64,000 nt of DNA from an uncultured bacterium (GCA_964525555.1 CAZGHN010000006.1:74805-138804); one strand, 5' to 3'; positions 1,347-61,253 are shown, numbered from the stretch's first letter. Numbers and translations: made by a program. The notes: a model not told the origin generated them from the sequence alone.

Positions 1347-1916
1347 TCAAAATCTATACGAAAGCGATAGTCCATAGCTTTCATGTTCTATATCGATTTC
1401 TGGCGATAGATAAAAACCTCTGTAATCACGAGCTGAACGATTGTATTTTTCGACCGAGTTCGGGCAGGTCCATATGTCAAACACAATAGACCCAAAGGTG
1501 GCCGCACCTGAAATTATTGTACCCCAAAGATACAAATCCTCATTTTCGAAATTTGCATCGTGTACATCACTAACAACGCTCAGGAGTCCGAAACTGCTCC
1601 AGAGAAAGGTGCCGGTACTGATTGCCCTAAAACCAGCAGACATGAGCCCTCTTTTTGTGTTTCCGGCATAGAAATGACCCACACTTGGTCCGACAACAAT
1701 CCCGGAGACGGATACCAAAAAACTTCCTCTGAATAAAAAATCGTTGTAATCCCCATTATCTAAACAGATACAAAACGCTATGCCGGAAAGAAATGTCGCC
1801 CCGATTGAGTAGGCAGTTGCAGTGGTTGAACTCTTTAACTCCAGTGATTTCCTCTCGTTGCCGTAAGTTACGCAGAAAGTAAATAACAATAACACTATTG
1901 AAATTTTATATTTCAT
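1347..1916 (-). CDS. small secreted outer-membrane beta-barrel-like protein
   Basis: Start placed at internal ATG 1916 preceded by AGGAGGG (1922-1928); signal-peptide-like N-terminus MKYKISIVLLLFTFCV; Gly/aromatic-rich; C-terminal ...LSYRF (terminal Phe typical of OMPs). Confidence 0.5.
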   Translation of the reverse strand: MKYKISIVLLLFTFCVTYGNERKSLELKSSTTATAYSIGATFLSGIAFCICLDNGDYNDFLFRGSFLVSVSGIVVGPSVGHFYAGNTKRGLMSAGFRAISTGTFLWSSFGLLSVVSDVHDANFENEDLYLWGTIISGAATFGSIVFDIWTCPNSVEKYNRSARDYRGFYLSPEIDIEHESYGLSLSYRF

Positions 1917-1954: not shown

Positions 1955-1984
1955 GTAATATAATAATTTTTTTGGATTTGTCAA
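1955..1984 (-). promoter_or_regulatory. sigma70-like promoter (TTGACA-N16-TATATT) preceded by C-tract, for 1347..1916
   Basis: Minus strand reads CCCCACCCCCC-TTGACA-aatccaaaaaaattat-TATATT. Confidence 0.45.
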
Positions 1985-2045
1985 GGGGGGTGGGGGTGAC
2001 TGTTGGCTGGGTTTTTGTTTTCATTCAAAATTCAAAACTCAAAAT

Positions 2046-2117
2046 TCAAAATTCTTAATCAATGCTTCGCATTGCTCCCTTGACTTATGAGAATGATTTT
2101 TTAAATTTTATACTATG
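2046..2117. repeat. 72-bp interspersed element, copy 2; probable promoter/operator region of the 2207-6301 operon
   Basis: Identical to 461..532; lies about 90 nt upstream of 2207 on the same strand. Confidence 0.8.
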
Positions 2118-2206: not shown

Positions 2207-2872
2207 ATGATTGCAAAATTTAATCTATATGATTTCGTAGCAGCGGTAATACCTGGAATTCTATTTATCTGGGTATTTTCTTTGTTCTCGAGTTCCATAG
2301 ATATTCCTATTACTGGTGGACTTGCTGAAACCTCAATTCTTGTGGCTTTGGGATATGTGATTGGGATGATGCTACAAGGAATTAGCCAATTATTCACAGA
2401 AAAGATTTTATTGATACTTTGGGGTGGTTTTCCGTCTGCACGTTGGCTTCTCGAAGAGGATAATAAATTCAGCAGAGAATATAAAAACAAATTAAAAAAA
2501 TTAGTTGAAGATAAATATTCTGTTAAAATTGACGACAAACTGTCCAAAGAAGAACGTCTGAAGAAAAACCAAGAAGTTTTCTATCTTTGTTACAATGCCG
2601 TTGAAAAAGAGCGAATTAGCGACAGGCCTTATATATTCAATGCGCATTATGGTCTATTCAGATGCCTTCTAACCACATTTATTCTACTTTTTTTTGTTGA
2701 GCTGTACGCTCTTTTAATAGATAAACAGCAAAATAAAGCCGTTATCTATAGTGTTCTAATTCTTAGTATCATTGGTATAATAGTAAGTTATTTTCGTGCG
2801 AAACAGAGAGGCGAGGATTTTGCTAAATCTATCTATGATCTTTTTTTGGTGCGATTTTCAGAACGAGAGTAG
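2207..2872 (+). CDS. membrane protein (two N-terminal and two C-terminal TM helices), first gene of the MBL/E2-E1-JAB operon; possible effector
   Basis: Hydrophobic helices FVAAVIPGILFIWVFSLF, ILVALGYVIGMMLQGI, LLTTFILLFFVELYALLI, VIYSVLILSIIGIIVSYF; RBS AAAGGAGG before ATG; stop 16 nt before next gene. Confidence 0.55.
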   Translation: MIAKFNLYDFVAAVIPGILFIWVFSLFSSSIDIPITGGLAETSILVALGYVIGMMLQGISQLFTEKILLILWGGFPSARWLLEEDNKFSREYKNKLKKLVEDKYSVKIDDKLSKEERLKKNQEVFYLCYNAVEKERISDRPYIFNAHYGLFRCLLTTFILLFFVELYALLIDKQQNKAVIYSVLILSIIGIIVSYFRAKQRGEDFAKSIYDLFLVRFSERE

Positions 2873-2888
2873 CTAGGGAGGGTAATAG

Positions 2889-3956
2889 ATGTCAAACGTA
2901 GCAAAAGACATAATCATTCCAACTGAGCCTAATATCTTCCGAACAATATTCCTCTATGTCGGACAAGGAGACTCTACATTGCTAGTAGTCCCTGCGGGAG
3001 ACGGGTATAAGTATGTATTAATAGATTCAAATTATGACGAAGCCGCTGGTGGTATAGATATTATCAAACTCCTTGAGAACCTTTTCGAAGAAGAAGACGA
3101 AGGTTTAGATGTTTATATAAACACCCATCCCCATAAAGATCATCTCGGAAAGGTTAGGGAAATATATGAAAAGATAGGTATTGGCCAATTATGGCATTCA
3201 GGGCACAAGCCAGGCGGCGAGCATAATGAATCTTATAAAGACCTCGAATTTGTAATCAAAAAACTTGGGGAAGAAAATGTATTTCGCCTTCGAGGTAGCA
3301 GGGAAGAAAACAAATTAGATGAAGAAAAAATTATACTAGGCGACATAAATTACAACATTTTGGGCCCTGCCGATTATGTATCCGATGAAATAGAAGACGA
3401 AAAACCCAAAGAAAGATATACTAGGATTCATGAGCAATGCGCGGTAATTCGATTTAAATACGGAGAAGAAGAGAAACAGATACTCATTACTGGAGATGCA
3501 GATTACAAAGCATGGAAAGAACATATTACTGATTACCACGCGGATAGACTTCCTTCGACAGTGTTAAATGCTGCTCACCATGGTTCAAGGTCTTTTTTCT
3601 GGAAAGATGATAATATGGAGGAAGACCCTTACAAAAAACACTTAGAGAAAATCAAACCGACTTATATTACAGTTAGTGCCCCAAAAGAAAAGGAAAGTAG
3701 GCACGGCCACCCTCATAAAGAAGCCTTGAAGTTATACAAGGAAGAAGTAGGAACTGATGATAAGGTTTTTCATTTAGGCAAGAAAAGAGAATGCATAATT
3801 GTTGATATATACGCCGATGGTGATATAGACCTCTATCCTAATGATGAGTTGGTTAAGAGATATGGAAAAAAGAACGGAGACAATGGGGGTGACGACAAAA
3901 GAACAGGGATTCCGCCAACAGTCACAAAAATCGACAAGAAACCAATGGGTACTTGA
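2889..3956 (+). CDS. metallo-beta-lactamase-fold hydrolase (ComEC/Rec2-like MBL subfamily)
   Basis: GQGDS near N-terminus and HxHxDH motif THPHKDH (nt 3122-3142); later His/Asp ligands (HSGH, TGDADY, AAHHGS); strong RBS GGGAGGG; stop overlaps next start (TGATG). Confidence 0.75.
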   Translation: MSNVAKDIIIPTEPNIFRTIFLYVGQGDSTLLVVPAGDGYKYVLIDSNYDEAAGGIDIIKLLENLFEEEDEGLDVYINTHPHKDHLGKVREIYEKIGIGQLWHSGHKPGGEHNESYKDLEFVIKKLGEENVFRLRGSREENKLDEEKIILGDINYNILGPADYVSDEIEDEKPKERYTRIHEQCAVIRFKYGEEEKQILITGDADYKAWKEHITDYHADRLPSTVLNAAHHGSRSFFWKDDNMEEDPYKKHLEKIKPTYITVSAPKEKESRHGHPHKEALKLYKEEVGTDDKVFHLGKKRECIIVDIYADGDIDLYPNDELVKRYGKKNGDNGGDDKRTGIPPTVTKIDKKPMGT

Positions 3957-6301
3957 TGGAATGGTTCGCTCGTCACACTGGCTGGTTATATAGAGAAACA
4001 AGGGAACTTTCAAAAAATTCAATCTACAGTGAACAGCACCAATTTATAGACAAAACACTCATATCTAGCGGTAATATCTTAGTCCATAAGATAAAAACAG
4101 AATACTTTCCGATTTTAATCGTATATCCTGAAGCTACACCTTATGTCCCTCCTACGATATACCTTTTAGAAAATGAGATAAGTGAGGAAACAGCGAAAGA
4201 ATATTCGGAGCTTTCTCCTGAAGAGATAAGAAAAAGCGTAAAGGATAACATTGCATTTTTCTATAGGCGACATCAGAATGAAGATGGAAGCGTATGCTTT
4301 GTTGAAAGGGGTGACTTACATGATGAAAACCCAGAGAAATATCCTATTGAAAACATAATTAAAAGGTTGAGGGTATGGCTGTCTGGAAAGAAGATACCAA
4401 AGGACAGTCGTGAAGTTGAACTGTTTTATCATTTTCCAAACAGAACTTACGAAATTCAGTATCTCCTGCCGGATTTGTTCTTTGATAGGGAAATAGTAAA
4501 AGGAAAATTCTTTGCAGGACTGTCCAGCCTTATTACAGCAAAATACTTTACAGATGGTACCGAGAAAAGGACATTCATGGGAGTAATGATAGTCGGGGAA
4601 ACACAAGGAGGTGTGTCTCTTCCTCCCAAGTATTATGTAAAAAAACAGCTAATTCTATTTACTCACATTCCGGATATAGAGCATTTGATAACAAATAATG
4701 AGGAAAAAGCAAAGAAAATAGAAAATGGGGAATTAATAGAAGGACACTGGTGGAATATTACTAAAGAGCCTCTACCCTTTTCAAAATTAAATGAGCTTGC
4801 AAAATATATCGGTAACAATGATGAGGTAAAAGGATTTGATATGATGGTAGAAAGCTTAGAATCTGAATTGAAAGCATTTGAAGACTTCATTCACGTAGGA
4901 ATCAGATTTCCCGGAAGGTATAGAGAAAGAGATTGGCAAATGTTTAGACTCAACAAAGGAAGCCGTCCACCAATTATTGTATCCCAAAGGGAAGAATTGA
5001 AACAGCGGGTGCTCGATTACTCTATCGAAGCAGTGTATCAGGAGTATCTTACTGATGATTATTTCCACATGCGAAATAAGGGAAGAGCCGATAGAAGTAT
5101 CTTGAAGAATAAAACTATATCAATTATCGGTTGTGGTGCGCTTGGCTCTGAAACTACTGATGCACTGAGTAAAGCCGGAATAGGAAGATTTATTCTAGTA
5201 GATAGAGAAGTGATGAGGGCTCACAATACTGTTAGGCATAGTCTGGGTATAAATAAAGTAAGCATACCTAAGGCATGTGGTATGGCGGAACATTTGATTC
5301 TTCACAATCCTTTTATAAATATTGAATGGGAACATGAAGACATTCTGCTTGCCAAGATCGAAGATTATTTGCCCGAGGGTGCTATTGGGGTTTCAACCAT
5401 AGCTGATGACAATATAGAAGCTTACCTTAATGAAATAGCCATGAGTCAGGGAAGAACAATCTTCTATTGTAGGGCTTTGCGTGGTGGGAAAGCCGCGCGC
5501 ATATTCAGGGTCGTTCCGCAGATAGATGCATGCAAGACTTGTTTGGGGCTTTATCTCAGAGATAAAAATCCCTTTTTTATTAATATCCCAGAAGATGAGA
5601 GTCTTCCGGTTATAACAAATGAGTGCAACAACCCAGTAAGGCCTGCGAGTGCGGCCGATATGAAAATGATCTCTGGAGTTTTTGCGAGAATCATCATTGA
5701 TTTCCTACAGGGTAAGAGAACAGATAACAACCATTGGATTTGGACATCCGAATCTCTGGAAGGATTGAATATGGAAAATTCAACATATGGGTTTATAAAT
5801 GCAGAAAGCATAGCACCACACCCTCATTGTCTTGTTTGCCAGAAATTGGAAGACGCGAAAGTATATATTTTAAAAGATGTATTGGACTTCATGAAACGGG
5901 AAGCAACAAAATCTGGTAAAATCGAAACAGGGGGAGTTTTAATTGGACACATGTTGGCTAAAGGTGAGTATAAAATTTTAAAAGCAAGTAAGCCTGGCCC
6001 AAATGCTATAAGAACCGAGAATCGCTTTGAGAAAGATGAAAAATATTGTCAAAAAGTGCTTTTGGATGCTTTTGAAGAGCTCGATGATCAAGGCCTTTAT
6101 TTAGGAGAATGGCATTATCATCCTTTGGGTAGCAACGAACCAAGCGGAATAGATATCAATAGCCTAACAGAGATAGCAATTCAAGACAACTACCGGATAG
6201 ACAAACCAATAATGATAATATTATCACCGAAGTTGGAATATGCAATTACAATTCATAATAGGTTTGGCCGATGTGTTAAAATACCCTTGAAGATTGTATG
6301 A
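3956..6301 (+). CDS. E2(UBC-like)-E1(ThiF/MoeB-like)-JAB/MPN(JAMM) triple-domain ubiquitin-like conjugation enzyme
   Basis: N-terminal UBC-like signature YPEATPYVPP...RRHQNEDGSVCF (HPN-like motif plus Cys, nt 4271-4297); central Rossmann ISIIGCGALGSETTDALSKAGIGRFILVDREV (nt ~5123-5200); C-terminal JAMM motif E...HYHPLGSNEPSGID matching HxHx7Sx2D (nt 6113-6160). ATG 3956 used; ORF track begins at TTG 3953. Confidence 0.8.
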   Translation: MEWFARHTGWLYRETRELSKNSIYSEQHQFIDKTLISSGNILVHKIKTEYFPILIVYPEATPYVPPTIYLLENEISEETAKEYSELSPEEIRKSVKDNIAFFYRRHQNEDGSVCFVERGDLHDENPEKYPIENIIKRLRVWLSGKKIPKDSREVELFYHFPNRTYEIQYLLPDLFFDREIVKGKFFAGLSSLITAKYFTDGTEKRTFMGVMIVGETQGGVSLPPKYYVKKQLILFTHIPDIEHLITNNEEKAKKIENGELIEGHWWNITKEPLPFSKLNELAKYIGNNDEVKGFDMMVESLESELKAFEDFIHVGIRFPGRYRERDWQMFRLNKGSRPPIIVSQREELKQRVLDYSIEAVYQEYLTDDYFHMRNKGRADRSILKNKTISIIGCGALGSETTDALSKAGIGRFILVDREVMRAHNTVRHSLGINKVSIPKACGMAEHLILHNPFINIEWEHEDILLAKIEDYLPEGAIGVSTIADDNIEAYLNEIAMSQGRTIFYCRALRGGKAARIFRVVPQIDACKTCLGLYLRDKNPFFINIPEDESLPVITNECNNPVRPASAADMKMISGVFARIIIDFLQGKRTDNNHWIWTSESLEGLNMENSTYGFINAESIAPHPHCLVCQKLEDAKVYILKDVLDFMKREATKSGKIETGGVLIGHMLAKGEYKILKASKPGPNAIRTENRFEKDEKYCQKVLLDAFEELDDQGLYLGEWHYHPLGSNEPSGIDINSLTEIAIQDNYRIDKPIMIILSPKLEYAITIHNRFGRCVKIPLKIV

Positions 6302-6492
6302 TAAATAGATTTGCAAGAACCATTTTTAGAAATTAACAGACTTAGACATTGAAATGATTTCATAGATTCTTCGAATCAGTTGAATTGTCAAATCGTTGAA
6401 TAGTTGGATAGTAAGAAAAAACTTCGTGTCTTAGTGTCTTCGTGGCTAATTAGGGGTTGTGGGTTGCTGTCAGCCGTGAGCGGTCAATCGTC

Positions 6493-6520
6493 TTGACAAA
6501 TCGATTTATCTTTTTAATAT
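6493..6520 (+). promoter_or_regulatory. sigma70-like promoter TTGACA-N16-TAATAT for thi4
   Basis: TTGACA 6493-6498, TAATAT 6515-6520, RBS AAGGAGGG 6566-6573, ATG 6577. Confidence 0.5.
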
Positions 6521-7368: not shown

Positions 7369-7449
7369 TTATGAATGTTGAATGTTAAATGTTGAATTCA
7401 AAACTCAAAATTCAAAATCCTAAATCCCAATTTGAAGGTTTAAAGCAGA

Positions 7450-8046: not shown

Positions 8047-8056
8047 AAAACATCCC

Positions 8057-8084
8057 TTGACATTAGAGAAATACTGTATAGATT
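8057..8084 (+). promoter_or_regulatory. candidate promoter cccTTGACA-N16-TAGATT for the por operon
   Basis: TTGACA 8057-8062; RBS AAAGGGAG before ATG 8107. Confidence 0.4.
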
Positions 8085-8697: not shown

Positions 8698-8990
8698 TGG
8701 CAAAGAAGAAGGAAGGATGGAAAGAACTTCCTATTGGTGCGATTATAGTCGAACCCGGTTCAAGTGAAAAATTCAAGACCGGAGACTGGAGAGAAGGAAA
8801 GAAACCGTCTGTAGATAAGAATAAATGTACGAATTGTATGATATGTTGGATTTCCTGCCCTGATTCCGCGATTATTGTTAAAGACGGAGAAATGAAAGGT
8901 TTTAATCTGGATTATTGTAAAGGTTGCGCGATTTGTGCTTCACAATGTCCTGTTAAAGCCATAGAGATGGTCGACGAGGAGGAAGAATGA
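8697..8990 (+). CDS. porD: pyruvate/2-oxoacid:ferredoxin oxidoreductase, delta subunit (2x[4Fe-4S] ferredoxin)
   Basis: Two Cys clusters CTNCMICWISCP and CKGCAICASQCP. Confidence 0.8.
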   Translation: MAKKKEGWKELPIGAIIVEPGSSEKFKTGDWREGKKPSVDKNKCTNCMICWISCPDSAIIVKDGEMKGFNLDYCKGCAICASQCPVKAIEMVDEEEE

Positions 8991-12173: not shown

Positions 12174-12205
12174 TTAACGCGGCACAGCCGCGTTAATTTT
12201 GAATG
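12174..12205 (+). terminator. intrinsic terminator ending the por-mglBA operon
   Basis: Perfect 10-bp stem TTAACGCGGC-aca-GCCGCGTTAA followed by a T-rich run. Confidence 0.65.
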
Positions 12206-12235
12206 TTGAATTTTAAATTTTGAATTAGGAATTCC

Positions 12236-18322: not shown

Positions 18323-18449
18323 TAAGCCCTCCTTAATATTTATGCTGTTTTTTCAGCTTTTAGATTATAAAAGTATATTTTGTAATGTCAAGTCCGAAAG
18401 AAGTTTGGGCCTTTGGTGTTTGCTCTCGCATTGTGATTGTAATAACCCC

Positions 18450-18477
18450 TTGACAAGGTTTGAAAAATCAGTATTAT
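18450..18477 (+). promoter_or_regulatory. promoter cccTTGACA-N16-TATTAT
   Basis: TTGACA 18450-18455, TATTAT 18472-18477, ATG 18488 (short leader). Confidence 0.45.
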
Positions 18478-18487
18478 TTATAATACT

Positions 18488-20104
18488 ATGAAGAAAATTA
18501 TAGAATATTTAAGTATAATTATAATAATTTTTTCATTTTTAATAGTTCCTAATTTTTATGCCCAGAGTTGTAGTTGGAGAAATTATATAGATCTTCCAAG
18601 TGCAAATATTACAGACGGTTTTTTTGTTAATCTTAATAGTGGTTATGCCCTCGCAAGTGACGTAGAGAAGAATTTTGATGTAAACGGTTCCATTGAATAC
18701 GGTATTGCAGGTTTTATTGCAGGTATAAAAATCTATACAGAGAAAACATTTTGTCTTGATTTAGGATATCAATTTATGGATGAGAGCGGAGGTTTTCCGA
18801 GTTTAGCAATTGGAGTTGAAAATATTACAAATAACAAATTTGTATCTCCTCTTGGAGATTCAGGTATGGTTGACGAAGTATATGCTTCCAGGCCTCCGGA
18901 GGTTGCTTCTGCTTATCTGGTTGCTACAAAAAGTTTTGGTAGTAACTTTGAAATGACTTTTGGTTTAGGACGAGGAAGATTTGTAGGTTACGGTCCTCGA
19001 AGTAAGTATTTAAACTTTGATGCCTTTTCCGATGAAAAGCACCCGGATTTTATGTTTGGGCTTTTTACCGGTATGAAGTTTTCTTTACCTGTTGGAGTTT
19101 CATTCATTATTGAAACTGATGGTAGGGACGCTAATGTAGGTTTGGGATATGAATCGGGTATATGGAAGAGTACTTTGAGTCTCGATAAATTCGAACACCT
19201 ATTTGCCAGCGATGGAAATCCGTTGATAAATGCGCCATGGGTGAGTTTATCTTTGTCGATTAATCCCGTTGGAGGTGGAGGGAAGAAGTCTCGGTCTACC
19301 GGAACATTAAGAATAGCTTTAAAGGATAAAGGTACCGGAAATCCTATTCAGGGTAAAATCATTGTGTCTCAAGGTAATGTTGAAAGGACTTTTGAAGTTT
19401 CGACTACACAGAAAAGAGTGCTTCAATTGAAAGCCGGTGTTTATAAAATAACTGTTTTTTCTGCAGGATATAAAATGAAAACAGCAAATATCCCGGTCAA
19501 AGCCGGGAAAGACATGGAATTTGATATTAGTTTATCAAAAGTTATAAATCCTGCAGTGAAACAATCCATGGATTTAACAAAAGCAGCAGCATTTGATTAT
19601 AAATATGGTCGGTTTAAGGAAGCAAAACAAAAACTTGAAGAAGCATTGACTTTATATCCCAATAATAAAAAAGCACAGAAAGGTTTACAATTGATTGATA
19701 AAGCCTTTGCAGATAATGTTAGTTCCTTGAAGAGTAAGGCAAGAGCTCGTGAGTCTGCCGGAGATATAAAAGGTGCGATAGCATTGTGGCAGGAAGTTGT
19801 TGCATGGGAGAAAGACCCGTCCGCAACACAGAAACATATACAATCTTTGAGAAATAAATTAGCCGCTGCGAGTAGAAAAAAACCGGTTAGAAGAACTACT
19901 ACTTCTAAGGTTACAAGGAGGGCTCCGGCAAAAAAGAAGCCTTCTCTGTCAAAACAACAAATAACAGACCTTTATACTAAAGGTCTTAGTGCTTATTTTG
20001 ACGGTAATTATAAAGAAGCAATAAAATATTTTCAACAAGTGCTTAGCGCAGATCCTTCTCACGCACAAGCTAAGCGTTATCTGGGAGAAGCCAAGAAACA
20101 TTAA
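18488..20104 (+). CDS. secreted protein with carboxypeptidase-regulatory-like domain and C-terminal TPR repeats
   Basis: Signal peptide; beta-sandwich-like segment; TPR-like helical repeats. Confidence 0.55.
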   Translation: MKKIIEYLSIIIIIFSFLIVPNFYAQSCSWRNYIDLPSANITDGFFVNLNSGYALASDVEKNFDVNGSIEYGIAGFIAGIKIYTEKTFCLDLGYQFMDESGGFPSLAIGVENITNNKFVSPLGDSGMVDEVYASRPPEVASAYLVATKSFGSNFEMTFGLGRGRFVGYGPRSKYLNFDAFSDEKHPDFMFGLFTGMKFSLPVGVSFIIETDGRDANVGLGYESGIWKSTLSLDKFEHLFASDGNPLINAPWVSLSLSINPVGGGGKKSRSTGTLRIALKDKGTGNPIQGKIIVSQGNVERTFEVSTTQKRVLQLKAGVYKITVFSAGYKMKTANIPVKAGKDMEFDISLSKVINPAVKQSMDLTKAAAFDYKYGRFKEAKQKLEEALTLYPNNKKAQKGLQLIDKAFADNVSSLKSKARARESAGDIKGAIALWQEVVAWEKDPSATQKHIQSLRNKLAAASRKKPVRRTTTSKVTRRAPAKKKPSLSKQQITDLYTKGLSAYFDGNYKEAIKYFQQVLSADPSHAQAKRYLGEAKKH

Positions 20105-22629: not shown

Positions 22630-22658
22630 TTTTACCGCAGAAGACACAAAGAATAAAA

Positions 22659-22802
22659 ATAGGATTAGAAGCAGTGCAAGTCAGCAATTCTGGGATTATG
22701 GATTAAGTGGTAGTTTCTTTCTTAATCCTCGCTTTTCTTCGAAGCTTCTCATCTAATCCTTAATCCTAGCTCGACTACCAGGTGTTCTACTAATCCTCGA
22801 AA
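22659..22802. repeat. ~145-bp interspersed element (family R1, subtype i)
   Basis: Near-identical to 25128..25271 over about 110 bp; first ~55 bp shared with 28204.. and 29061.. Confidence 0.75.
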
Positions 22803-22854
22803 CCTTGCCCCCTAAACTTTAATCAACTACGAGCAAGGAACAAAGAACTCTTTA

Positions 22855-25002
22855 TTACCTTATCCTTATTACTTTCTTTGAAATTTTAATGTTTCCTGAT
22901 TTTAGTATACCAAAGTACAATCCCGACCCGAGTTTATTGCCTGAATGGTCGCTTCCGTCCCACAAAATAATTGTTGGAGAAGAGCTATTATTTTCTAAGG
23001 AAAAGGATTTTACCAGCTGTCCGTTTACGTTATAAATGGAAAAAGCGGCATCTTTTATGCTATTGTTACCGGCTAGATAGAGAATAAATTCCGTTCTATT
23101 GCTGAAAGGATTAAGCGAGATATTGAAACTTAGAGGTATTGAGTTGTTTGTAGGGGTTTCTATACCTGCTTCTTCATCCTGAAGGACCCAGACTGTTCCA
23201 CCCTCGTGACACATTACGTAGATTTTGTTCGTTTGCGAATTTACTCCAACTTCCCAGGGGGCATCTCCGACTTCGATAGTCGTAATCACGGAATCTGTAT
23301 TTCCGTCAATTACACTGGTATTGTCATTATACTCATTTGCTGCAAAGATGTGGTTCGACTGTGGGTTTACACCTAGTCCTTTTGGCCAGTTTTCGACATC
23401 AATAGTGTCAATCACTAAGTTAGTAGCCCCATCGATTACATGGATACTATCGCATGCAACATATATTCTGTTTGTCTGTGGGTTTATGGCGATCCCTTCA
23501 GGCCAGCTGCCGACCGCAATAGTGTCAATCACGGAGTCAATAGCACCATCGATTGCAACAACACTGTGATTATCCGATTCTGTCACATATATCCGGTTTG
23601 TTTCCGGATTTATGCACATTCCTGATAGCCAGCTTCCAATTGCAGCTGTATCAATAACGGAGTTAGTTGTGCCGTCGAGTACGACAACCTTAGTATTATC
23701 TTCTATTACATATATCCGGTTTGTTTGCGGATTTACGGACATATCTGATATCCAGCTTCCAATTGCAATAGTATCGATCAAGGTGTTAGTAGTTCCGTTA
23801 ATAACGCTAACCTCGTTCTCAGTTCCTACATATATCCGGTTTGTTTCCGGATTCACGCAAACTTCTGACGTATAACCTCCGAGTTCAATGCTGGTAATCA
23901 TGGAGTTGGTAACTCCGTCAATTACGTTGACGCTGTAGCTTTCTCCAGTTGTTACATAAGTTCGGTTTGTTTGTGGATTTACGGCAATATCATTGGGTTG
24001 AACTCCAAGCACGATAGTAGTAATGAGGGTGTGGGTAGTTGCGTCAATCACACTGGCAGTGTGGTTCCAATAATTCGCCGTATATATACGGTTCGTTTTC
24101 AGATTTATAGCAAGCTCCCGCGGTTCGCCTCCAAGTGCGATGGTATCAATAAGTGAATCGAGTGTTACATCAAACACGGTAATAGCGTAGTTGTTTCTGT
24201 CTAAAGAGTAAAGATGGTTGGTTTGTGGGTCTAGACTTATACTGGATGGTCTATGTCCGACATCAATAGTGTCAATCACAGAGTCAGTCTCACCGTCAAT
24301 TACAAAAATGTTACTATAATCATAATTTGCAACATAGATTAGATTTTTTATAGTATCTACCTCAACTCCGAGAGGTCGGTTTCCAACATCAATAGTGTCA
24401 ATCACGGAATCTATAGTTCCGTCAATTACGTGAACATCTTCATCAGCCCAGTTCGTTACATATATGCGCCTGGTTTTTGGATTTGCATCGATTCCATTTG
24501 GCATATTTCCAACCGTAATAGTAGTGATCAAAGAGTTGGTATTGGCATCGATAACACTAACATTGTCGTCACCTTCATTTGCCGTATAGATGAGGTTATT
24601 CTTTGGGTCTATGCTAATTTTATCGGGAGAGTTTCCGATTGCAATAGAATCAATTATGGAGTCAGTTGTCCCATCAATCACATAAATATTGTCGGTGGCC
24701 GGATTTGTCGTGTAAATAAGGTTTGTTTCAGAATTCACTCCGATTTCCCTTGCTGCGTTTGCTAATTCAATAGAGGCAATGACAGAATTGGTTGTACCGT
24801 CGATCACGGAAACATTGTCTGTGAATAAATTTACCACATAGATACGGTTTGTCGCATCATTTACATCAATTGCTGTAGGGCGCAATCCGTTTCCCGATTC
24901 TGGGCGAAGGTATATTGTATCAATAACCGTAACCTGGCTGAACCCAATAATTGTGTAACAGAATATTATAACTGACAATGCGCCTTTTTTTGAAAAAAAC
25001 AT
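22855..25002 (-). CDS. YVTN-family beta-propeller repeat protein with T9SS-type C-terminal sorting domain
   Basis: Many ~43-aa repeats (N..IYV.N..sv.ViDg.T); signal peptide from ATG 25002 with RBS AAGGAG; C-terminal beta-sandwich tail. Confidence 0.7.
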   Translation of the reverse strand: MFFSKKGALSVIIFCYTIIGFSQVTVIDTIYLRPESGNGLRPTAIDVNDATNRIYVVNLFTDNVSVIDGTTNSVIASIELANAAREIGVNSETNLIYTTNPATDNIYVIDGTTDSIIDSIAIGNSPDKISIDPKNNLIYTANEGDDNVSVIDANTNSLITTITVGNMPNGIDANPKTRRIYVTNWADEDVHVIDGTIDSVIDTIDVGNRPLGVEVDTIKNLIYVANYDYSNIFVIDGETDSVIDTIDVGHRPSSISLDPQTNHLYSLDRNNYAITVFDVTLDSLIDTIALGGEPRELAINLKTNRIYTANYWNHTASVIDATTHTLITTIVLGVQPNDIAVNPQTNRTYVTTGESYSVNVIDGVTNSMITSIELGGYTSEVCVNPETNRIYVGTENEVSVINGTTNTLIDTIAIGSWISDMSVNPQTNRIYVIEDNTKVVVLDGTTNSVIDTAAIGSWLSGMCINPETNRIYVTESDNHSVVAIDGAIDSVIDTIAVGSWPEGIAINPQTNRIYVACDSIHVIDGATNLVIDTIDVENWPKGLGVNPQSNHIFAANEYNDNTSVIDGNTDSVITTIEVGDAPWEVGVNSQTNKIYVMCHEGGTVWVLQDEEAGIETPTNNSIPLSFNISLNPFSNRTEFILYLAGNNSIKDAAFSIYNVNGQLVKSFSLENNSSSPTIILWDGSDHSGNKLGSGLYFGILKSGNIKISKKVIRIR

Positions 25003-25127
25003 ATACTTCTCCTTATTTTTACAGACAAATATATTTTGTTTTCCTATTATGTCAACCATTTACTTATAAAAATATCAGTTTATTACTTATAAGGTATTTT
25101 TGTTGCAGAGAGAACACAGAGAATAGA

Positions 25128-25271
25128 ATAGGATTAAAAGTAGAGCAAGTAGGATGTTCAAGGATTATGGATTAAGTGGTAGTTTCTTTCTTAATCCTCG
25201 CTTTTCTTCGAAGCTTCTCATCTAATCCTTAATCCTAGCTCGACTACCAGGTGTTCTACTAATCCTCGAAA
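25128..25271. repeat. ~145-bp interspersed element (family R1, subtype i)
   Basis: See 22659..22802; together they flank the YVTN gene as direct repeats. Confidence 0.75.
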
Positions 25272-25275
25272 TCTT

Positions 25276-26444: not shown

Positions 26445-26818
26445 TTAATAGCCTCCTTTTATTGTTACATAAGAAGTTTAAGCATTTTTGCTTATATGTC
26501 AAGGGTTTTTTTTAATATATGGTTAAAAATTTGCTAAAAGTCTTTTTTTATTTTTTAAACAAATTAGCTGTTTTTATGCAAATAAAACACAGAGCCAGCC
26601 TTTCTACGTGCCTTATTTTTTAGCCACAAAAGACACAGAGATTTTCTTTTATGTTTTTAAAGCTCAACGCACTACCTTGAATTAGCCGCAGATTTTCGCT
26701 TATAAATACGGGTTTCCCACCTACCCATTCTTTAATACTTTTTTGTTTTTAAATATTGAAATAAATTTTTTTAATCTGTGGGAATCCGTGGCTAATTTCG
26801 CCGGGGGTGGGGATGGGC

Positions 26819-26846
26819 TTGACAAGCGGGTTTTGATGGGTATATT
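26819..26846 (+). promoter_or_regulatory. strong sigma70-like promoter TTGACA-N16-TATATT with no ORF close downstream
   Basis: GTGGCTAA and GGGGGTGGGGATGGG tract immediately 5'; nearest + strand ORF starts at 27127. Confidence 0.45.
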
Positions 26847-27126
26847 CTATAAATCGACAAGGCCGATAAAATGTAAAAATAAAAATTCAAAATGGAAAAA
26901 TACAAATCAGAGTTCAAAAATATAAAAAAAAGAGAAATAACAAATTACACGAATAGCACAAAGGTTTTGGGGGGGTGGAGAAGAGATAATTTTACATTTT
27001 CATTTGTAATTTTGCTTTTTAAAATTTGATATTTTAATTATGAAAGAAATGAGATAATTTAAGTGAAATATTTTTTTGCAAGAAAAATAAAAAGTTAATT
27101 ATTTATAATGTAAAAACGGAGGATGC

Positions 27127-28203: not shown

Positions 28204-28348
28204 ATAGGATTAGAAGCAGTGCAAGTCAGCAGTTCTGGGATTATGGATTAAGTGGTAAGTTAAAATTTAGTCCAAAGTCCAAGGTCCTAAGTCCAAAGTC
28301 TTGAGTCAAAACTAAATCCTAAATCCCAAATCAAAACCCCTAGTATTA
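28204..28348. repeat. ~145-bp interspersed element (family R1, subtype ii)
   Basis: Near-identical to 29061..29204; together they flank gene 28440..28970 as direct repeats. Confidence 0.75.
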
Positions 28349-28439
28349 CTGATTTACTGATTCACTAATTTACTGATATACTGAAATTCCATTTCAAATA
28401 TTCAACAATTCGACCATTCAACTGATCCGAAGGATCTTT

Positions 28440-28970
28440 CTATCTAGAAGTTTTAAGGATTTGATCTAATAACTCATTATTTGTTTTTAATTCTTCCCAA
28501 ATAAGATCCGGGGAAGAGAAGCAGTCGAAAGGGTTTTTCTCATTCCATGAGATATGGTTTAAAGATAAATCTCCTTTTGGTCTAATGTAGAATCGGAATT
28601 CCCAGGTAAGTGGAGTTCCCAAATGGTAACTTATATAATATAAACGTATATATTTATTGCTGCCCGGAAGATAACTTGTGTTAATAAGGTTATATTCATA
28701 AAAATCTCCATATCGCCCATTCGGAGGTTCAATGAAAATACTGTCTAATTTAGTTCTATAATCATTTTTAGTTTTTTCTTTTGTGTCTTCATCCAAGTAA
28801 TAACCAGTTTCTTCAACTATCATTCGAGCGATTTTTTCTGTTCGTTTATTTTTGAGGTCATCGAAAAATTTTACAACAAATTCATTTACTTGTTTATCTG
28901 CTATTTGTTTATCTATTTTAGCTGTTATATATAAAGGAACGAACATAAGTATAAGAATATAAATTTTCAC
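28440..28970 (-). CDS. secreted hypothetical protein (GTG start) preceded by an rhs-core-like promoter module
   Basis: Signal peptide; upstream 28994-29025 is homologous to the rhs HLDRLGSP coding segment. Confidence 0.5.
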   Translation of the reverse strand: MKIYILILMFVPLYITAKIDKQIADKQVNEFVVKFFDDLKNKRTEKIARMIVEETGYYLDEDTKEKTKNDYRTKLDSIFIEPPNGRYGDFYEYNLINTSYLPGSNKYIRLYYISYHLGTPLTWEFRFYIRPKGDLSLNHISWNEKNPFDCFSSPDLIWEELKTNNELLDQILKTSR

Positions 28971-29060: not shown

Positions 29061-29204
29061 ATAGGATTAGAAGCAGTGCAAGTCAGCAGTTCTGGGATTA
29101 TGGATTAAGTGGTAAGTTAAAATTTAGTCCAAAGTCCAAGGTCCTAAGTCCAAAGTCTTGAGTCAAAACTAAATCCTAAATCCCAAATCCAAACCCCTAG
29201 TATT
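29061..29204. repeat. ~145-bp interspersed element (family R1, subtype ii)
   Basis: See 28204..28348. Confidence 0.75.
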
Positions 29205-29365
29205 GCCACAAAGTACACAAATAAAACAAAGATTTTTTTGTTTTAATTCAGAATTCATAGTTCAAAATTATCATCGTCCTTAATCCTGGCTTAACTTCTT
29301 GCTTTTCTTCTAATTACAAAACATTCCCCCCTTGCTCAAAGATTCAAAAAGAATATACTATTTAT

Positions 29366-30592
29366 ATGGAAAAGCTGTCTAATTTCGAGTTTTTTCTTGC
29401 TAAACGTTATATACGAATTAAAAAAGGCGAAGGTTTTAGGTCTTTGATTACTCTTTTTGCTGCAGGAGGAATCTGTCTTGGAGTTGCAACTCTTTTGGTC
29501 GTTTTATCCGTAATGAATGGTATGCAATCCGATCTTAAGCATAAGGTTCTTGGAGCGAGCGCTCCTTTAACGGTTTTAACTATTAATCAGGAAAATATAA
29601 AAGATTGGGAAAAGATTGCGGGCGACTTAAAAGAAAAAATACCTGAGATTCAGAATGCTACGCCATATATTTTTGAGAAAGCTCTTCTCAGATATGATAA
29701 AAGAACCGATGGAGCTATAATAAGAGGAGTAGATCCTGTTTCTTTTGGACTTGTTTCTGATATACCTAAGAATATAGAAGTCGGTGAATTTGATCTTTCG
29801 GGTAAGAGAGTTGTTCTTGGAAATTATCTTGCCAATCGCTTGTGGGCTCATGTAGGGGATACCATAACAATTTCATCTCCTTTTACTTCTGCGCCGACTC
29901 CCTTTGGGTTCCTTTTGCCTGCGGATGATTATATTCTGTCCGGAATATTCGATATGGGCATGTATGAATATAATGCTACACTCGCTATTATATCAGTTGA
30001 TAATGCGAGAAGGCTTTTTGGTATGAATGGGGTTTCGGGTATAGATTTTACTGTTGATGACCCCTATAAGGCTCCGGAACTTTCGATTGATATCGTTGCG
30101 GAGCTTGGATATCCTTATCGGGTGATTAATTGGATGGAAAGGAATAGAACTCTTCTTAGGGCTTTAGAAATCGAGAAAAAAGTAATGTTTATAATATTAA
30201 CTTTAATAATAATTGTTGCTGCTTTTAATATTATTTCTTCTTTGGTTCTTATCGTTCTAGGTAGAATGCGCGAAATAGGTATACTTAAAGCGCTCGGTTC
30301 TTCTTCTTCTTCAATTACAAGAATATTTCTTGTAGATGGGCTTATCGTTGGAGGTGGTGGTGCCCTTTTTGGTGTTTTAGTCGCCTTGATACTATGTTTT
30401 CTTCTTGGCAGGTATAAGTTTATCGATTTGCCTTCCGATATATATTTTCTTACAAAATTGCCTGTGGAAATGCAGTTATTCGATTTTCTTTTGGTATTTT
30501 TTTCTGCCATAATTTTATCTTTATTGGCAGCTTTATACCCGGCAAAGAAAGCCGCCAAACTTGACCCTGTGGAGGCGATCAGAAATGAGTGA
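29366..30592 (+). CDS. lipoprotein-releasing ABC transporter permease, LolC/LolE family
   Basis: FtsX-like permease with N-terminal TM, periplasmic domain and C-terminal three-TM bundle; paired with LolD-like ATPase. Confidence 0.75.
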   Translation: MEKLSNFEFFLAKRYIRIKKGEGFRSLITLFAAGGICLGVATLLVVLSVMNGMQSDLKHKVLGASAPLTVLTINQENIKDWEKIAGDLKEKIPEIQNATPYIFEKALLRYDKRTDGAIIRGVDPVSFGLVSDIPKNIEVGEFDLSGKRVVLGNYLANRLWAHVGDTITISSPFTSAPTPFGFLLPADDYILSGIFDMGMYEYNATLAIISVDNARRLFGMNGVSGIDFTVDDPYKAPELSIDIVAELGYPYRVINWMERNRTLLRALEIEKKVMFIILTLIIIVAAFNIISSLVLIVLGRMREIGILKALGSSSSSITRIFLVDGLIVGGGGALFGVLVALILCFLLGRYKFIDLPSDIYFLTKLPVEMQLFDFLLVFFSAIILSLLAALYPAKKAAKLDPVEAIRNE

Positions 30593-42140: not shown

Positions 42141-42405
42141 ACAGTATATCAGTGAATTCGTGAATCAGTAAATTAGTATACTTATTTTACTAATAACTAA
42201 GTAATGTTGCCTTTGTGTGAGAAATTAGGTTTTAGGTCTTTGGTTTTGGGTTTTAGTAAAGAAGAAAATAAAATCTCTACATGTTCTACATGTTAAAAAT
42301 TAAATGGGGTGTGTTGTGTTTTAAATAAACACACATCATTCTTTTTTTCAGTGTGCTCTGAGTTTTTTTCTTTGTGCTCTCCGTGTCTTTGTGTGAGAAT
42401 CTATT

Positions 42406-45019: not shown

Positions 45020-45043
45020 TGGTTTATTTTGCCACGAAGACAA

Positions 45044-45180
45044 ACAAAAAACATTTAACACAGAGTACACAGAGAAAAACAAAAAACACAGAGATCACAG
45101 AGAAAAAACTATGTTTCGTGTTTTTAAAACCCAACCCGCCTCAGTTAATTTTTCACATGTAGAACATGTAGGTATTGTAG
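45044..45180. repeat. ~137-bp interspersed element (family R2): four CACAGAG boxes plus conserved block with CATGT-AGA-ACATG palindrome
   Basis: Over 90 percent identical to 60998..61134; both sit just upstream of promoters of secreted-protein genes. Confidence 0.8.
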
Positions 45181-45411
45181 TTTTGTTTTTTACAATTTAA
45201 CTATTTTTCTATTTAACAATTCAACTGATTCGAAGAATCTATAACACTGATTCACCGATTCACTATTTTACTGAATCACTGCTGTCTATTGATGCAATTT
45301 TTTCATAAGTGATACCGTTGATATTTTCATTGGTGACCCCAATTATACGCCAATTACGCAATTACAGAAGATTCAAAACCAATTTCATTGATATTGAATA
45401 TCAAAGTAATC

Positions 45412-51844: not shown

Positions 51845-53086
51845 TTACCAGTTTTGAATATCCTGAGGTATGACTTGAATATTTCCGTTATCATAAGACC
51901 CAATTGGACTATAACCACTAACTGCGTTATAATGTTGAAGGAAATCATTATCATATTTGCCTCCACCTCTTTTAATAAGACTCTTCGGATCTTTTCCTCG
52001 ATGTACTTCCTTTACAAATTTTTTCATTCTTGCAAGTTCTATCTCTGCTACCTCTGCTCCGTTCTTCTGGTCTTTATAAACTTTACTAAGATCTAGCCGG
52101 TCGTAACCCTCATAACCTGGCACTATTGCTTCCTCATGTTTGTGAGCAAACATTCCCATGCAGATTTTATCTATATCCCCTTCGCGGATTGTATTCATAG
52201 TACTAAAAAGGGTAACAATTCCCCAGAAAGCAGTAGTTGGAACGCCGGTAAATGCCGCCCCAGCCCAAAACCAATCTTCACCTGTTACAATTTCTGCGGA
52301 GGGGTAAGGTATCTCTTCAGGAGCTGTGGTTAAAGCTCCTGGGAAACGTCTCCTAAGGGTTAAAAATACACTACCCATTGGTACTATCGAACCAGCTGTT
52401 TCAGCCGTCCCTCGACCCAAAGTTACCCTATATACCATATTATCTGTAGTAGTGCGGAATAGGCCTTTCTTATCCACATAATACAACGGATCATTTGTGC
52501 AATAAACATACGGATTAAATGTTTGCGGGTCCGAAAGTTCCAAATTCCCCGGCATAAGCGTATGCGGATCAGGGGATATAAATCTTCCGGTATTACTACT
52601 ATAATACCTCGCACCAAAGTAATTGAATCCCGACTTATCTTTCTCTTTACCAGTAAACTCCCTATTATCCTCATGAGTCCCACTTGATGAGACCACCGCT
52701 CCAAACCCTTCATACGTTTTATCTTTCACAATATCATCCTCATCTGTAATCATAATGGGGGAACCGAGTCTGTCAAGATGATAATAATAGAGATGACCGT
52801 CTTCTTCTTTGGCAAGGAGACGGTTTCCCGCATAGAAATACTTCTTCGGAGGAGTTCGCTCTGAACCCGATTCGCATCGGGCGTTATCCACCCATAATTT
52901 TCCTGAACCGGATAGTTTTATAAGCATTACCTTAAGGGCTTCTACTTCCCATTCGGGCATATTTCCTTCATCTACCGTTAACAATATCTTTTGCCAGTTG
53001 TTTGTTCCTGTTATTGGATTAGATGTTATAAATTTGTTATGACCGATAGAGAGTAAGAATTGTCCAATGTCGAGATGCGACCCCAA
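51845..53086 (-). CDS. orphan rhs C-terminal cassette (start-less): partial CBM-like domain, rhs core end, unique toxin tip
   Basis: YYYHLDRLGSP...NDPLYYVDKKGL; frame opens after stop at 53087-89 (TTG only); 5' end abuts tandem repeat 53079..53151. Confidence 0.6.
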   Translation of the reverse strand: MGSHLDIGQFLLSIGHNKFITSNPITGTNNWQKILLTVDEGNMPEWEVEALKVMLIKLSGSGKLWVDNARCESGSERTPPKKYFYAGNRLLAKEEDGHLYYYHLDRLGSPIMITDEDDIVKDKTYEGFGAVVSSSGTHEDNREFTGKEKDKSGFNYFGARYYSSNTGRFISPDPHTLMPGNLELSDPQTFNPYVYCTNDPLYYVDKKGLFRTTTDNMVYRVTLGRGTAETAGSIVPMGSVFLTLRRRFPGALTTAPEEIPYPSAEIVTGEDWFWAGAAFTGVPTTAFWGIVTLFSTMNTIREGDIDKICMGMFAHKHEEAIVPGYEGYDRLDLSKVYKDQKNGAEVAEIELARMKKFVKEVHRGKDPKSLIKRGGGKYDNDFLQHYNAVSGYSPIGSYDNGNIQVIPQDIQNW

Positions 53087-53151
53087 TTACACACGACCCC
53101 AATTACACGACCCCAATTACAACCCCAATTACACACGACCCCAATTACACA
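53079..53151. repeat. tandem repeat, about five copies of a 13-16-bp unit GACCCCAATTACAC(AC)
   Basis: Direct reading of 53079-53151, ending in inverted GGGGTC. Confidence 0.8.
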
Positions 53152-53576
53152 AGGGGTCAACTTTATTGTATCCAAATTTAAAAATCACTTTGCTGTGATC
53201 AATATAAAATAATTTGCTGCGATTAATAATCCCCTCCTTAATTTAAGATTCTTTATAATTAAAAAATATGTATTTGAAAATAAATGTCAATAGTGGTATG
53301 CAGGGAATATATCGAACGAAGAATTATAAAAAATAGAAGAGGAATCACCCAGAAATGTTTTTAATATTAATTTAAACAGGAGGTAAAAAAAGATTAATTT
53401 AACCCCACCCCTTGACACTTTTCAAAGAAGGTCTGACCCTGTTGCCCCCACTGTTGCCCCCAGAGAAAAGAACGCACGTTAATCTTGACCCTAGATACAT
53501 AGATACACTCATTATACTCCAGCATCATAATCTTAAACCCTTGATTTTTATTTGTAAACCAATATTATTAAAAGAC

Positions 53577-54755
53577 ATGAAAGAAGTAAATTTAGGAAAG
53601 AGAATAAAAAAACTGTTCCTTTTTCATATAGTATTTCTTGGTGTAATAGTATTTATTTCGTGTTCACGAGAACAAGGAAACAATGCAACAGTGAAAGTTG
53701 AAATTCCAATCGATTCTAAATCTAATATATATGAACTAATTTTAAAAGAAAAAATTGATTTTAGTCATTTAATCAAAAAAGCTGACTCATTATTTGATGT
53801 TGGAGAATATGTTAAAGCCGAATCTCTATATAATAAAGCGCACAATCTTTCGCTGGAATCCGGTAATAAAAAATTAATCGGAGTTACTTTAATTGGTATC
53901 GGAGCGTCTAAAGATAGACAATTTGAATATGAAGAAGCCATTGAGATATTTAACAACACAATGGAATATAAAAGTTTAATGGATAATCCTAGTTTATATC
54001 TATTGTTTTTTAACAAAGGTGTTTCTTTACAAAAAACAGATAAGCTGGAAGGCGCATTAAATTCATATAAGAATGCAATTCTAATAGATTCTAACTTAAC
54101 GGAAGCTTACATTAATCTGGCAAAAATTTACTATAGTGAAAATCAAAAAGATAAAGCATTTAAGGAACTTTCTAAAGCGATTGATTTAGGTTCTAAATAT
54201 TATGATGCTTACTTAGGAAGAGGTATTATCTATCTTAAGAAAGAAGAATATCAGAAAGCTTTAAAAGACCTCAATTTCGCTATAAAGCTGAATCCAAAAT
54301 CTGTTAAAGCCTATAAAGCACGTGGAATGATTTATGGCGATGAAGGAAAGATTGAAAAAGCTTTATCTGACTTTAATAAAGCTATAGAATTGGAACCCAA
54401 AAATTCCGACCTTTATTCTTTAAAAGCGTTTATTTTTTACGAAAAGGAAAGTTACAATAAAGCTCTCCGAAACTTAAATAAAGCAATTGAATTAAATTCT
54501 AATTCTCACAAAGATTACCACCTTAGAGGTATTATTTATGGGAAGAAAGGTAAATATGATCAAGCAATAGATGAATTTACCAAAGCAATCAATTTAGAAC
54601 CCCAAAGTTATGAATCATATTATTTCAGAGGTTTGTCTTACGCTAATAAAGGTAATTATAAAGAAGCAATAACTGATTACAAAAAAACATTAGATTTGAA
54701 TCCAAGATTTGATGAAGCACAGGAAAGGCTAAGAGAATTAAAACAATTTAAGTAA
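53577..54755 (+). CDS. TPR-repeat lipoprotein
   Basis: Start at ATG 53577 (signal/lipobox VFISCS) instead of track TTG 53412; at least eight TPR-like 34-aa repeats. Confidence 0.65.
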   Translation: MKEVNLGKRIKKLFLFHIVFLGVIVFISCSREQGNNATVKVEIPIDSKSNIYELILKEKIDFSHLIKKADSLFDVGEYVKAESLYNKAHNLSLESGNKKLIGVTLIGIGASKDRQFEYEEAIEIFNNTMEYKSLMDNPSLYLLFFNKGVSLQKTDKLEGALNSYKNAILIDSNLTEAYINLAKIYYSENQKDKAFKELSKAIDLGSKYYDAYLGRGIIYLKKEEYQKALKDLNFAIKLNPKSVKAYKARGMIYGDEGKIEKALSDFNKAIELEPKNSDLYSLKAFIFYEKESYNKALRNLNKAIELNSNSHKDYHLRGIIYGKKGKYDQAIDEFTKAINLEPQSYESYYFRGLSYANKGNYKEAITDYKKTLDLNPRFDEAQERLRELKQFK

Positions 54756-60943: not shown

Positions 60944-60980
60944 ATTGTAGGGAAAATGAAACTTTTGTCAAGAGGTTTTT
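60944..60980 (-). promoter_or_regulatory. promoter GTGGCTAA-N9-TTGACA-N16-TACAAT for rhs
   Basis: Minus strand reading of 60980-60944. Confidence 0.45.
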
Positions 60981-60997
60981 TTAGCCACACCCACCAC

Positions 60998-61134
60998 CAA
61001 AAAACATTCACCACAGAGAACACAGAGAAAAAGAAAAAACACAGAGCACACTGAGAAAAAAACTATGTTTCGTGTTTTTAAAACCCAACCCACCTCAGTT
61101 AATTTTTCACATGTAGAACATGTAGAAATTGTAG
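60998..61134. repeat. ~137-bp interspersed element (family R2), copy upstream of rhs
   Basis: See 45044..45180. Confidence 0.8.
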
Positions 61135-61253
61135 ATACTGTGTTCTCTTTGATTATTTTACTAATTAACAAATATACTAATCAACCAATTAACAGATTCG
61201 AAGAATTTTTGAATCTAAATCAAAAGATGCAATTTTTTCTTAGGCGGTACCAA

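Follow-up and report, generated by a model that had tools for sequence, protein, structure and literature searches.

The window, by which is meant the whole 64,000-nt stretch of DNA analysed here, comes from an uncultured candidate division WOR-3 bacterium and is ∼36.5% GC, ∼90% coding and ∼10% intergenic, in agreement with the AT-rich genome described in an earlier reading made from this DNA without knowledge of its origin (the sequence-only reading). Its TopA has a 100% identical counterpart on a 163-kb NCBI contig. The named relatives closest to the window are "candidate division WOR-3 bacterium" MAGs, and WOR-3 is now listed as phylum Caldifarciminota. A tRNA scan of the window found no genes and an Rfam search gave no matches. 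We know of no experimental knowledge of WOR-3 promoters, the phylum having no cultured model organisms, and a literature search on WOR-3 intergenic repeats or promoters, and on CCCTTGACA, found nothing relevant. The promoters discussed below are all predictions from sequence, and the evidence is computational throughout. Syntenic loci in relatives were gathered by exact look-ups of TopA and MacB homologues; the resulting clade sample comprises ∼175 kb from ∼7 genomes, and, because paralogous or orthologous copies are among the promoter instances, counts are not independent.

Near its left end the window carries a three-gene operon (2207-6301) that encodes a Csx27/PDC-M48A-like membrane protein, a PDC-M48B-like metallo-beta-lactamase-fold protein and an E1(ThiF)-JAB fusion, and that matches candidate anti-phage defence models. 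In a metagenome scan the ThiF-JAB protein was found at four loci (68-75% identity) in unrelated genomic contexts, and the operon therefore appears to be a mobile defence-type island. A scan of genome contigs for Thi4 gave matches solely in distant phyla, at no more than 76% identity, and this gene is evidently horizontally mobile. Farther to the right, two accessory genes are bracketed by ∼145-nt direct repeats: that of an NHL beta-propeller protein (22855-25059; repeats 22658-22806 and 25127-25275, 93% identical) and that of a 176-aa protein (28440-28970; repeats 28204-28347 and 29061-29204, 99% identical). Both repeat pairs have in common a 55-nt core that begins with ATAGGATTAGAAGCAGTGCAAGTCAGCA. 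Neither bracketed gene is present at the orthologous position in the related loci L097 and L098, an absence suggesting that they were inserted as cassettes when recombination took place at a dispersed repeat. Five copies of a sequence beginning ATC-TTGACA-GACTSGGTWCCCC, all on the minus strand (29017, 47684, 49681, 52771 and 61876), are conserved in both spacer and boxes. Two of them precede small genes without known function that have identical ribosome-binding sites, and the other three are at the 5' ends of tandem paralogous ORFs whose N-termini are common to the RHS-repeat protein region; these copies could represent an in-spacer operator or the 5' end of a duplicated cassette.

Table 1. 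G/C-rich tracts and predicted promoter elements in the window
Feature	Position	Strand	Remarks
G6TG5TG tract	1985..1998	-	G6TG5 at 1985-1996; C-rich CACCCCCACCCCCC when read on the promoter strand; contiguous with -35 box TTGACA at 1979-1984
Predicted promoter TTGACA(1984-1979)-16 nt-TATATT(1962-1957)	1957..1984	-	Consensus scan, 11/12
CCC-TTGACT-16 nt-TAAATT	2077..2107	+	Within a 112-nt dispersed repeat (family D10)
G/T-rich module GGGGTTGTGGGTTG	6453..6466	+	26 nt 5' of TTGACA at 6493; preceded by GTGGCTAA (6442-6449)
Predicted promoter of thi4, TTGACA-16 nt-TAATAT	6493..6520	+	Consensus scan
CCC-TTGACA-16 nt-TAGATT	8054..8084	+	Predicted promoter of 4-subunit 2-oxoacid:ferredoxin oxidoreductase-like operon
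CCCC-TTGACA-16 nt-TATTAT	18446..18477	+	Predicted promoter of gene for 538-aa TPR protein (TPR538)
A8-CCC-TTGACA-16 nt-TAAACT	26475..26505	-	Predicted HU gene promoter; kept in L097 and L098
G5TG4ATGGG tract	26803..26817	+	One C between tract and TTGACA at 26819
Predicted promoter TTGACA-16 nt-TATATT	26819..26846	+	Consensus scan, 11/12
G7TGGAG tract	26969..26980	+	No nearby -35 box; indel difference in the middle of a dispersed AT-rich element
C6-TTGCTC-16 nt-TATACT	29326..29359	+	Predicted promoter of MacB/LolC-type permease gene; 6 nt 5' of ATG
CCCCACCCC + TTGACA	53403..53417	+	C4AC4 tract (53403-53411) adjoins TTGACA at 53412
CCC-TTGATT-16 nt-TATTAT	53538..53568	+	Read straight from the sequence; 8 nt 5' of ATG 53577
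Predicted promoter of RHS-repeat gene, TTGACA-16 nt-TACAAT	60944..60971	-	Consensus scan
G/T-rich module, reverse complement GGTGGTGGGTGTGG	60985..60998	-	Overlaps GTGGCTAA (60981-60988)

The sequence-only reading pointed to five places where G/C homopolymer tracts lie directly next to TTGACA -35 boxes. Tracts are present at all five (Table 1), but adjacency holds for only three of them (1985-1998, 26803-26817 and 53403-53411). The tract at 6453-6466 is not directly next to its box, because it lies too far upstream (26 nt), and that at 60985-60998 is 13 nt upstream of the minus-strand TTGACA at 60966-60971. The latter is no homopolymer tract, since its longest run is 3; both modules are better described as G/T-rich oligomers. 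The minus-strand promoter reported together with a tract at 1981-2005 is present, with G6TG5 adjoining TTGACA and a TATATT -10 after 16 nt, and it is predicted to serve a 189-aa protein gene (1347-1916, minus strand). Three cccTTGACA sequences, at 8054, 18447 and 53408, had been located correctly and called well-spaced promoters; the first two do have a -10 after 16 nt, but the box at 53412 has none at any allowed spacing (TGACCC at 16 nt), is missing from the consensus scan matches, and is probably not an active promoter. The element at 53538-53568 is, from its sequence and position, more likely than the 53412 box to be the promoter of the TPR lipoprotein gene that starts at ATG 53577. The promoter at 26819 has an orthologue in L098/L099, which adjoins a Zn-ribbon/hydrolase operon there and is predicted to drive it.

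When any 10 nt with 8 or more G, or with 8 or more C, count as a tract, the window contains nine, of which five are in coding DNA and four in the ∼10% of the sequence that is intergenic. The window and seven related loci together have 11 intergenic tracts, and four of these lie upstream of TTGAC[AT] at a distance of 10 nt or less, where random intergenic placement expects 0.29; none of 2000 trials gave four, and the observed number is thus ∼14-fold higher. This excess makes some selective link between tracts and promoters conceivable. The other seven tracts are away from any -35 box (among the relatives alone, one of seven is near a box), and promoter-free sites include L090 12264, which is a convergent intergenic region, L091 12815, L092 15969 and position 26969 of the window. 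Gaps between tract and box are 0, 0, 1-6, 8, 13 and 26 nt, on either strand. G/C runs of at least 5 between genes are also ∼12-fold more frequent than composition predicts (13 observed versus 1.1 expected). Adjacency of tract and box is thus beyond chance yet a minority behaviour.

A much shorter C-run behaves quite differently from the long tracts. The sequence CCCTTGAC occurs seven times in the window, always between genes, against 1.11 expected (none of 100 shuffles gave seven), and across the clade there are 14 copies in 15.9 kb of intergenic DNA versus one in 159 kb of coding DNA, a count that took in two added relatives and that represents ∼8 independent promoter families. TTGACA alone is merely ∼5-fold enriched between genes in the same clade set. 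In the window and the relatives with which it has 81-91% TopA identity, intergenic TTGAC[AT] is preceded by CCC in 10 of 37 cases (27%) and by at least the adjoining C in 21 (57%), the intergenic background for C being 15%; in coding DNA the corresponding figures are 0/76 and 11/76. Among AT-rich loci of other phyla (297 kb) CCC precedes only one of 293 TTGAC[AT], and in 43 kb from the distant WOR-3 loci L088 (73% TopA identity) and L039 the signal is absent. In eight independent promoter families CCC adjoins TTGAC[AT] or TTGC, and in all except 53409 TAnnnT follows after 16 nt. One of the CCC boxes resides in a D10 repeat (Table 1), whose second copy (427-538) has CCCTTGAC at 492-499.

Four sets of orthologous promoters (HU, TPR, gltX and MacB) keep the CCC, and the DNA upstream of it diverges. 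The C-run of the TPR538 promoter is C4, C4 and C3 in the window, L097 and L098, respectively, and that of the MacB promoter is C6, C5 and C4 in three genomes, where it stands before the weak hexamers TTGCTC, TTGCCC and TTGCTG. In the nine sequences made up by the HU, TPR538 and MacB promoters of three genomes each, CCCTTG, a spacer A-tract and the -10 are invariant. The gltX promoters of three genomes are invariant from GCCCTTGACT on and unalignable further upstream; the invariant block runs from GCCCTTGACTTGT through a TATATA -10 to the start codon. Being specific to intergenic DNA and kept at orthologous promoters, the CCC behaves as one would expect of a promoter determinant and, as far as such comparisons can tell, of a promoter element under selection. 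The association of G/C tracts with promoters that the sequence-only reading proposed is therefore upheld for the short C-run, but not for the long tracts as required promoter parts.

Two other features of these promoters were observed. The A4-5 run in the spacer, ∼4-5 nt upstream of the -10, is invariant in the HU, TPR538 and MacB promoters of three genomes and may be another clade-specific promoter feature. In addition, the -10 lies only 6-10 nt before the start codon, with no Shine-Dalgarno sequence, at MacB (29354-29368), TPR538 (18472-18490) and TPR447 (53563-53579). This closeness and the lack of a Shine-Dalgarno sequence suggest leaderless or near-leaderless mRNAs, which would exist beside genes with strong AAGGAGG sites.

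The E. coli sigma-70 -35 consensus is tcTTGACAt, and its 5' flank is weakly conserved. The WOR-3 clade promoters resemble it in the TTGACA hexamer, the 16-17 nt spacer, the TAnnnT -10 and the preference for C right 5' of the hexamer; however, their flank is far stronger, with a conserved CCC or CTC, and the C-run is kept even before a weak hexamer (CCCC-TTGCTC at MacB). An UP element is an A/T-rich alpha-CTD site at a fixed position between -40 and -60. It too lies upstream of the -35 box, and in several clade promoters an A-tract occupies roughly -39 to -46 (A8-CCC-TTGACA at HU), but the cited tracts are of the opposite, G/C-rich composition, variably placed and unconserved. The proposal that they are UP-element-like fails because both composition and position are wrong: G or C makes up 80% or more of the tracts, and they lie on both strands with gaps of 0 to 26 nt.

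Comparison of relatives and of repeat copies shows the long tracts to be labile, and they are not conserved at orthologous promoters, a statement that the comparisons support directly at 26803 and at the relatives' gltX promoter. At 26819 the window reads ...GCCGGGGGTGGGGATGGGC-TTGACA-16 nt-TATATTCT and the L098/L099 orthologue ...GCACTGTGGGC-TTGACA-16 nt-TATATTCT; immediately upstream of the box (...GGGGGTGGGGATGGGC-TTGACA versus ...CACTGTGGGC-TTGACA) the proximal GGGC alone is common to them. The DNA 5' of the gltX core is GTGGTGGGGGGAGGTGG in L086, GAGGGTGG in L092 and, in L091, a tandem repeat of the GACTC type. Repeat family D12 has two copies, at 45021-45108 and 60974-61061, which differ exactly at the 60985 tract (CCACACCCACCACC versus CCACGAAGACAAAC), the paralogous copy at 45021-45108 having GTTTGTCTTCGTGG where the 60985-60998 module sits. 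A dispersed AT-rich element of ∼170 nt, with five copies in four genomes, carries a G-rich insertion in two copies (G7TGGAG at window 26969 and GTGGTTAGGGTAGGGG in L086) and none in the other three. Near-identical strains (99.9-100% identity over 7-12 kb) show no intergenic indels, the sole long tract covered being that at 6453 (L001).

The ∼170-nt element itself lies at 26868-27060 in the window, at 8700-8870 and 14090-14260 in L086, at 17420-17560 in L097 and at 19340-19470 in L098. It has conserved arms, which pair in a 14-bp long-range stem (with one compensatory pair), and a variable centre. The window copy sits between the 26819 promoter and the Zn-ribbon gene, and in L098 the orthologous promoter is 25 nt from that gene. 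The element resembles a small insertion element or else a structured leader.

These tracts lie in intergenic DNA that, throughout the clade, is built of concatenated imperfect tandem repeats with 7-9-nt periods together with dispersed repeat families. Tandem units include ATTCAAA, AGTCCAA, CTAAATC, TTACTGAT, CACAGAGAA, ACATGTAGA, CGACCCCAATTACACA and CTGTTGCCCCCA, and Tandem Repeats Finder reports dozens of 7-9-nt arrays. Periodicity at lags of 5-9 nt marks 6.8% of intergenic DNA, the share being 0.005% in coding DNA and 0.01% when the intergenic DNA is shuffled, in a test for which the cited G/C tracts themselves are too short to score. An unbiased 7-mer scan for intergenic enrichment ranks CTTGACA (48-fold), CACAGAG (25-fold), GTGGCTA (18-fold) and GGGGTGG (16-fold), and the G-rich words are therefore one class among many. 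The orientation of repeat words shows no bias relative to flanking transcription (17 sense and 22 antisense for CACAGAG-like words, 8 and 8 for ATTCAAA), and the idea that they act at the RNA level was rejected on that ground.

Examples of such mosaic regions are 430-474, 2015-2059, 7372-7425, 12195-12233, 28269-28422, 42142-42294, 45046-45281, 53078-53151, 61012-61189 and 61896-62048. The words CACAGAG, ATCTGCGT, CATGTAG, ATTCAAA and ACTGATT recur in relatives with 81-91% TopA identity and are absent in the 73% relative. The region at 53078-53151, just after the start region of the minus-strand ORF 51845-53086, consists of five tandem copies of CGACCCCAATTACACA (14-16-nt units), and its G-rich strand supplies one of the two loose G-quadruplex motifs that the window has in all. 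Exact copies of GTGGCTAA are present at 6442, 26620 (minus strand), 26788, 39953 and 60981 (minus strand), all five between genes, with a relative copy at L086 9990; CTNTGTG-type repeats usually come before it and an A/T run after it, and a copy 6 nt 5' of the topA start codon is kept in L086. It was considered as a promoter-linked motif and set aside, as it lies anywhere between 8 and 43 nt from the -35 box and similar copies face in either direction. The GGTGG words were rejected as Chi-like, CtsR-box or Shine-Dalgarno sequences in general; the few instances right before start codons are plausible ribosome-binding sites.

Several known systems resemble this arrangement in part. The cyanobacterial STRR sequences are usually 7-bp repeats of unknown function (PMC2670836), and the clade repeats are like them in having 7-9 nt tandem units, in being confined to intergenic DNA, and in forming several families that occupy many loci and are common to related genomes. 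They differ in host (WOR-3/Caldifarciminota, apparently anaerobic), in their units, in their mosaic concatenation and in including G/C-rich units; they do not belong to the STRR families of heterocystous cyanobacteria (units CCCCAGT, etc.), and the likeness is an analogy that implies no homology. The BIMEs of E. coli are mosaic intergenic repeats in which REP-type palindromes are combined. Clade intergenic regions are likewise put together from a small number of modules that recur in varied combinations and orientations, but these modules are tandem oligomers rather than REP-type palindromes, and no RAYT-type transposase was found in the window.

The long tracts might nevertheless act on the promoters beside which some of them lie. 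They could be selected modulators, in which a rigid G·C block alters upstream wrapping or alpha-CTD contacts and thereby tunes the promoters of mostly accessory genes. The excess of tracts within 10 nt of TTGAC[AT] (4/11 against 0.29 expected) would fit this explanation, as would the presence of a tract at three high-scoring predicted promoters and of a GAGG(G)TGGAAA block, homologous in part, that L086 and L092 have 5' of their gltX promoters. However, the distance to the box varies from 0 to 26 nt, the G-rich strand is on the non-template side at 26803 and the opposite one at 1985 and 53403, tracts are missing at the orthologous promoters in L098 and L091, and 7/11 tracts are not at promoters at all, so that we consider such a role unlikely. 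The tracts were also proposed to be regulator binding sites, and a sequence-specific regulator or nucleoid protein that reads GGGTGG/CCACCC-type words could account for the 16-fold intergenic enrichment of GGGGTGG/CCACCCC, its presence in six different intergenic regions, and the (A/G)GGTGG found in most tracts. However, the tracts have no common geometry, neither a dyad nor a direct-repeat arrangement, they keep no fixed place with respect to promoters or genes, and they are not conserved at orthologous sites; they are found in convergent regions and in a dispersed repeat as well, and some matches resemble Shine-Dalgarno sequences, for example, GGGTGGAGGG just 5' of a start codon (L097 19728). 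Regulator binding is thus quite improbable.

Slipped-strand mispairing offers a different role, in which the homopolymer runs would be phase-variable contingency loci that switch the adjoining accessory genes. Phase-variable poly-G and poly-C promoter tracts are known in Neisseria and Bordetella, and such homopolymers are typically at least 8 long, uninterrupted, and in the spacer or in coding sequence. The present runs of G or C also lie by promoter elements of accessory or surface-protein genes (the 189-aa gene by the defence island, the RHS-repeat gene and the TPR lipoprotein gene), and the length of the MacB C-run varies between species (C6/C5/C4). They are shorter, however (the longest are 6-7 nt), and interrupted, and they are upstream of the -35 box rather than in the spacer, which makes phase variation unlikely; there is, moreover, no length polymorphism or other intergenic indel among the near-identical strains, in which the 6453 tract was the one long tract covered. 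Altogether we give this explanation very little weight. Least credible, and in our opinion very improbable, is that the tracts form G-quadruplex or i-motif structures which regulate transcription, the first of which the sequence-only reading had put forward. G-quadruplex prediction on both strands of the 64 kb found no canonical motif (G3+ with loops of up to 7 nt). With loops of up to 12 nt only two sites qualify, the repeat array at 53097-53142 and 26803-26830, and in the latter the -35 box is inside one loop. When G-quadruplex energies are included, the ViennaRNA prediction for the G6TG5 at 1985 is a two-tetrad structure, which favours this explanation; marginal ones are predicted at 26805 and 60981 (gain <2 kcal/mol), but none at 6453, 53403 or 26969. 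G-quadruplex motifs upstream of AT-rich elements have been used for promoter prediction in GC-rich bacteria (G4PromFinder, PMC5801747), and a few promoters here similarly have G-runs upstream of an AT-rich -10; this genome is AT-rich, though, and the relaxed G2-4 motif of that method is not enriched at promoters (it is present at 4/15 predicted promoters, and 14.6% of intergenic windows drawn at random have it), while its coverage of intergenic DNA (5.4%) equals that of coding DNA (5.6%). The G-rich strand, in addition, differs from site to site.

The explanation that we favour, with moderate confidence, is that two things are superimposed in this DNA: a clade-specific C-rich extension of the -35 box, and labile, slippage-type G/C expansions in repeat-mosaic intergenic DNA. 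The clade promoters would be of the sigma-70 type (TTGACA, 16-17 nt spacer, TAnnnT), with a -35 element extended 5' by a short C-run to a consensus of C-C/T-C-TTGAC, and this extension would be under purifying selection. RNA polymerase would read the C-run and hexamer jointly, and the simplest places for this would be region 4 of the housekeeping sigma factor or the junction of sigma4 and alpha-CTD, although CCC could instead be the site of some factor other than sigma. The long tracts (G6TG5, G5TG4ATGGG, C4AC4 and GGGGTTGTGGGTTG) would be one flavour of the low-complexity, short-period modules of the intergenic DNA, arising by local slippage or duplication, turning over fast, and not being required parts of promoters; slippage is inferred here solely from between-species length differences. 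For some expansions, the conserved C/G run at a -35 box appears to have been the seed, and the adjacency of tract and box that remains would be due to this.

More speculatively, a WOR-3/Caldifarciminota subclade might possess a lineage-specific 9-bp -35 element (CCCTTGACA) that is read by the housekeeping holoenzyme, together with an independent, STRR-analogous vocabulary of modules that expand from seeds, promoter C/G runs among them, reshuffle between loci, and maybe act as recombination landing pads for accessory cassettes; we put this broader picture forward only tentatively, as possible rather than probable.

For WOR-3 genomes, the CCC-TTGAC signature provides a simple rule for locating promoters and operon starts, and it hints at a lineage-specific contact between sigma and DNA. 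The tracts are a caution that repeat dynamics can give rise, as by-products, to striking G/C sequences in AT-rich intergenic DNA which are not regulators. The repeat mosaic in which they lie adds a second, independent case to the STRR phenomenon, itself poorly understood, and it could help to explain how such repeats originate.
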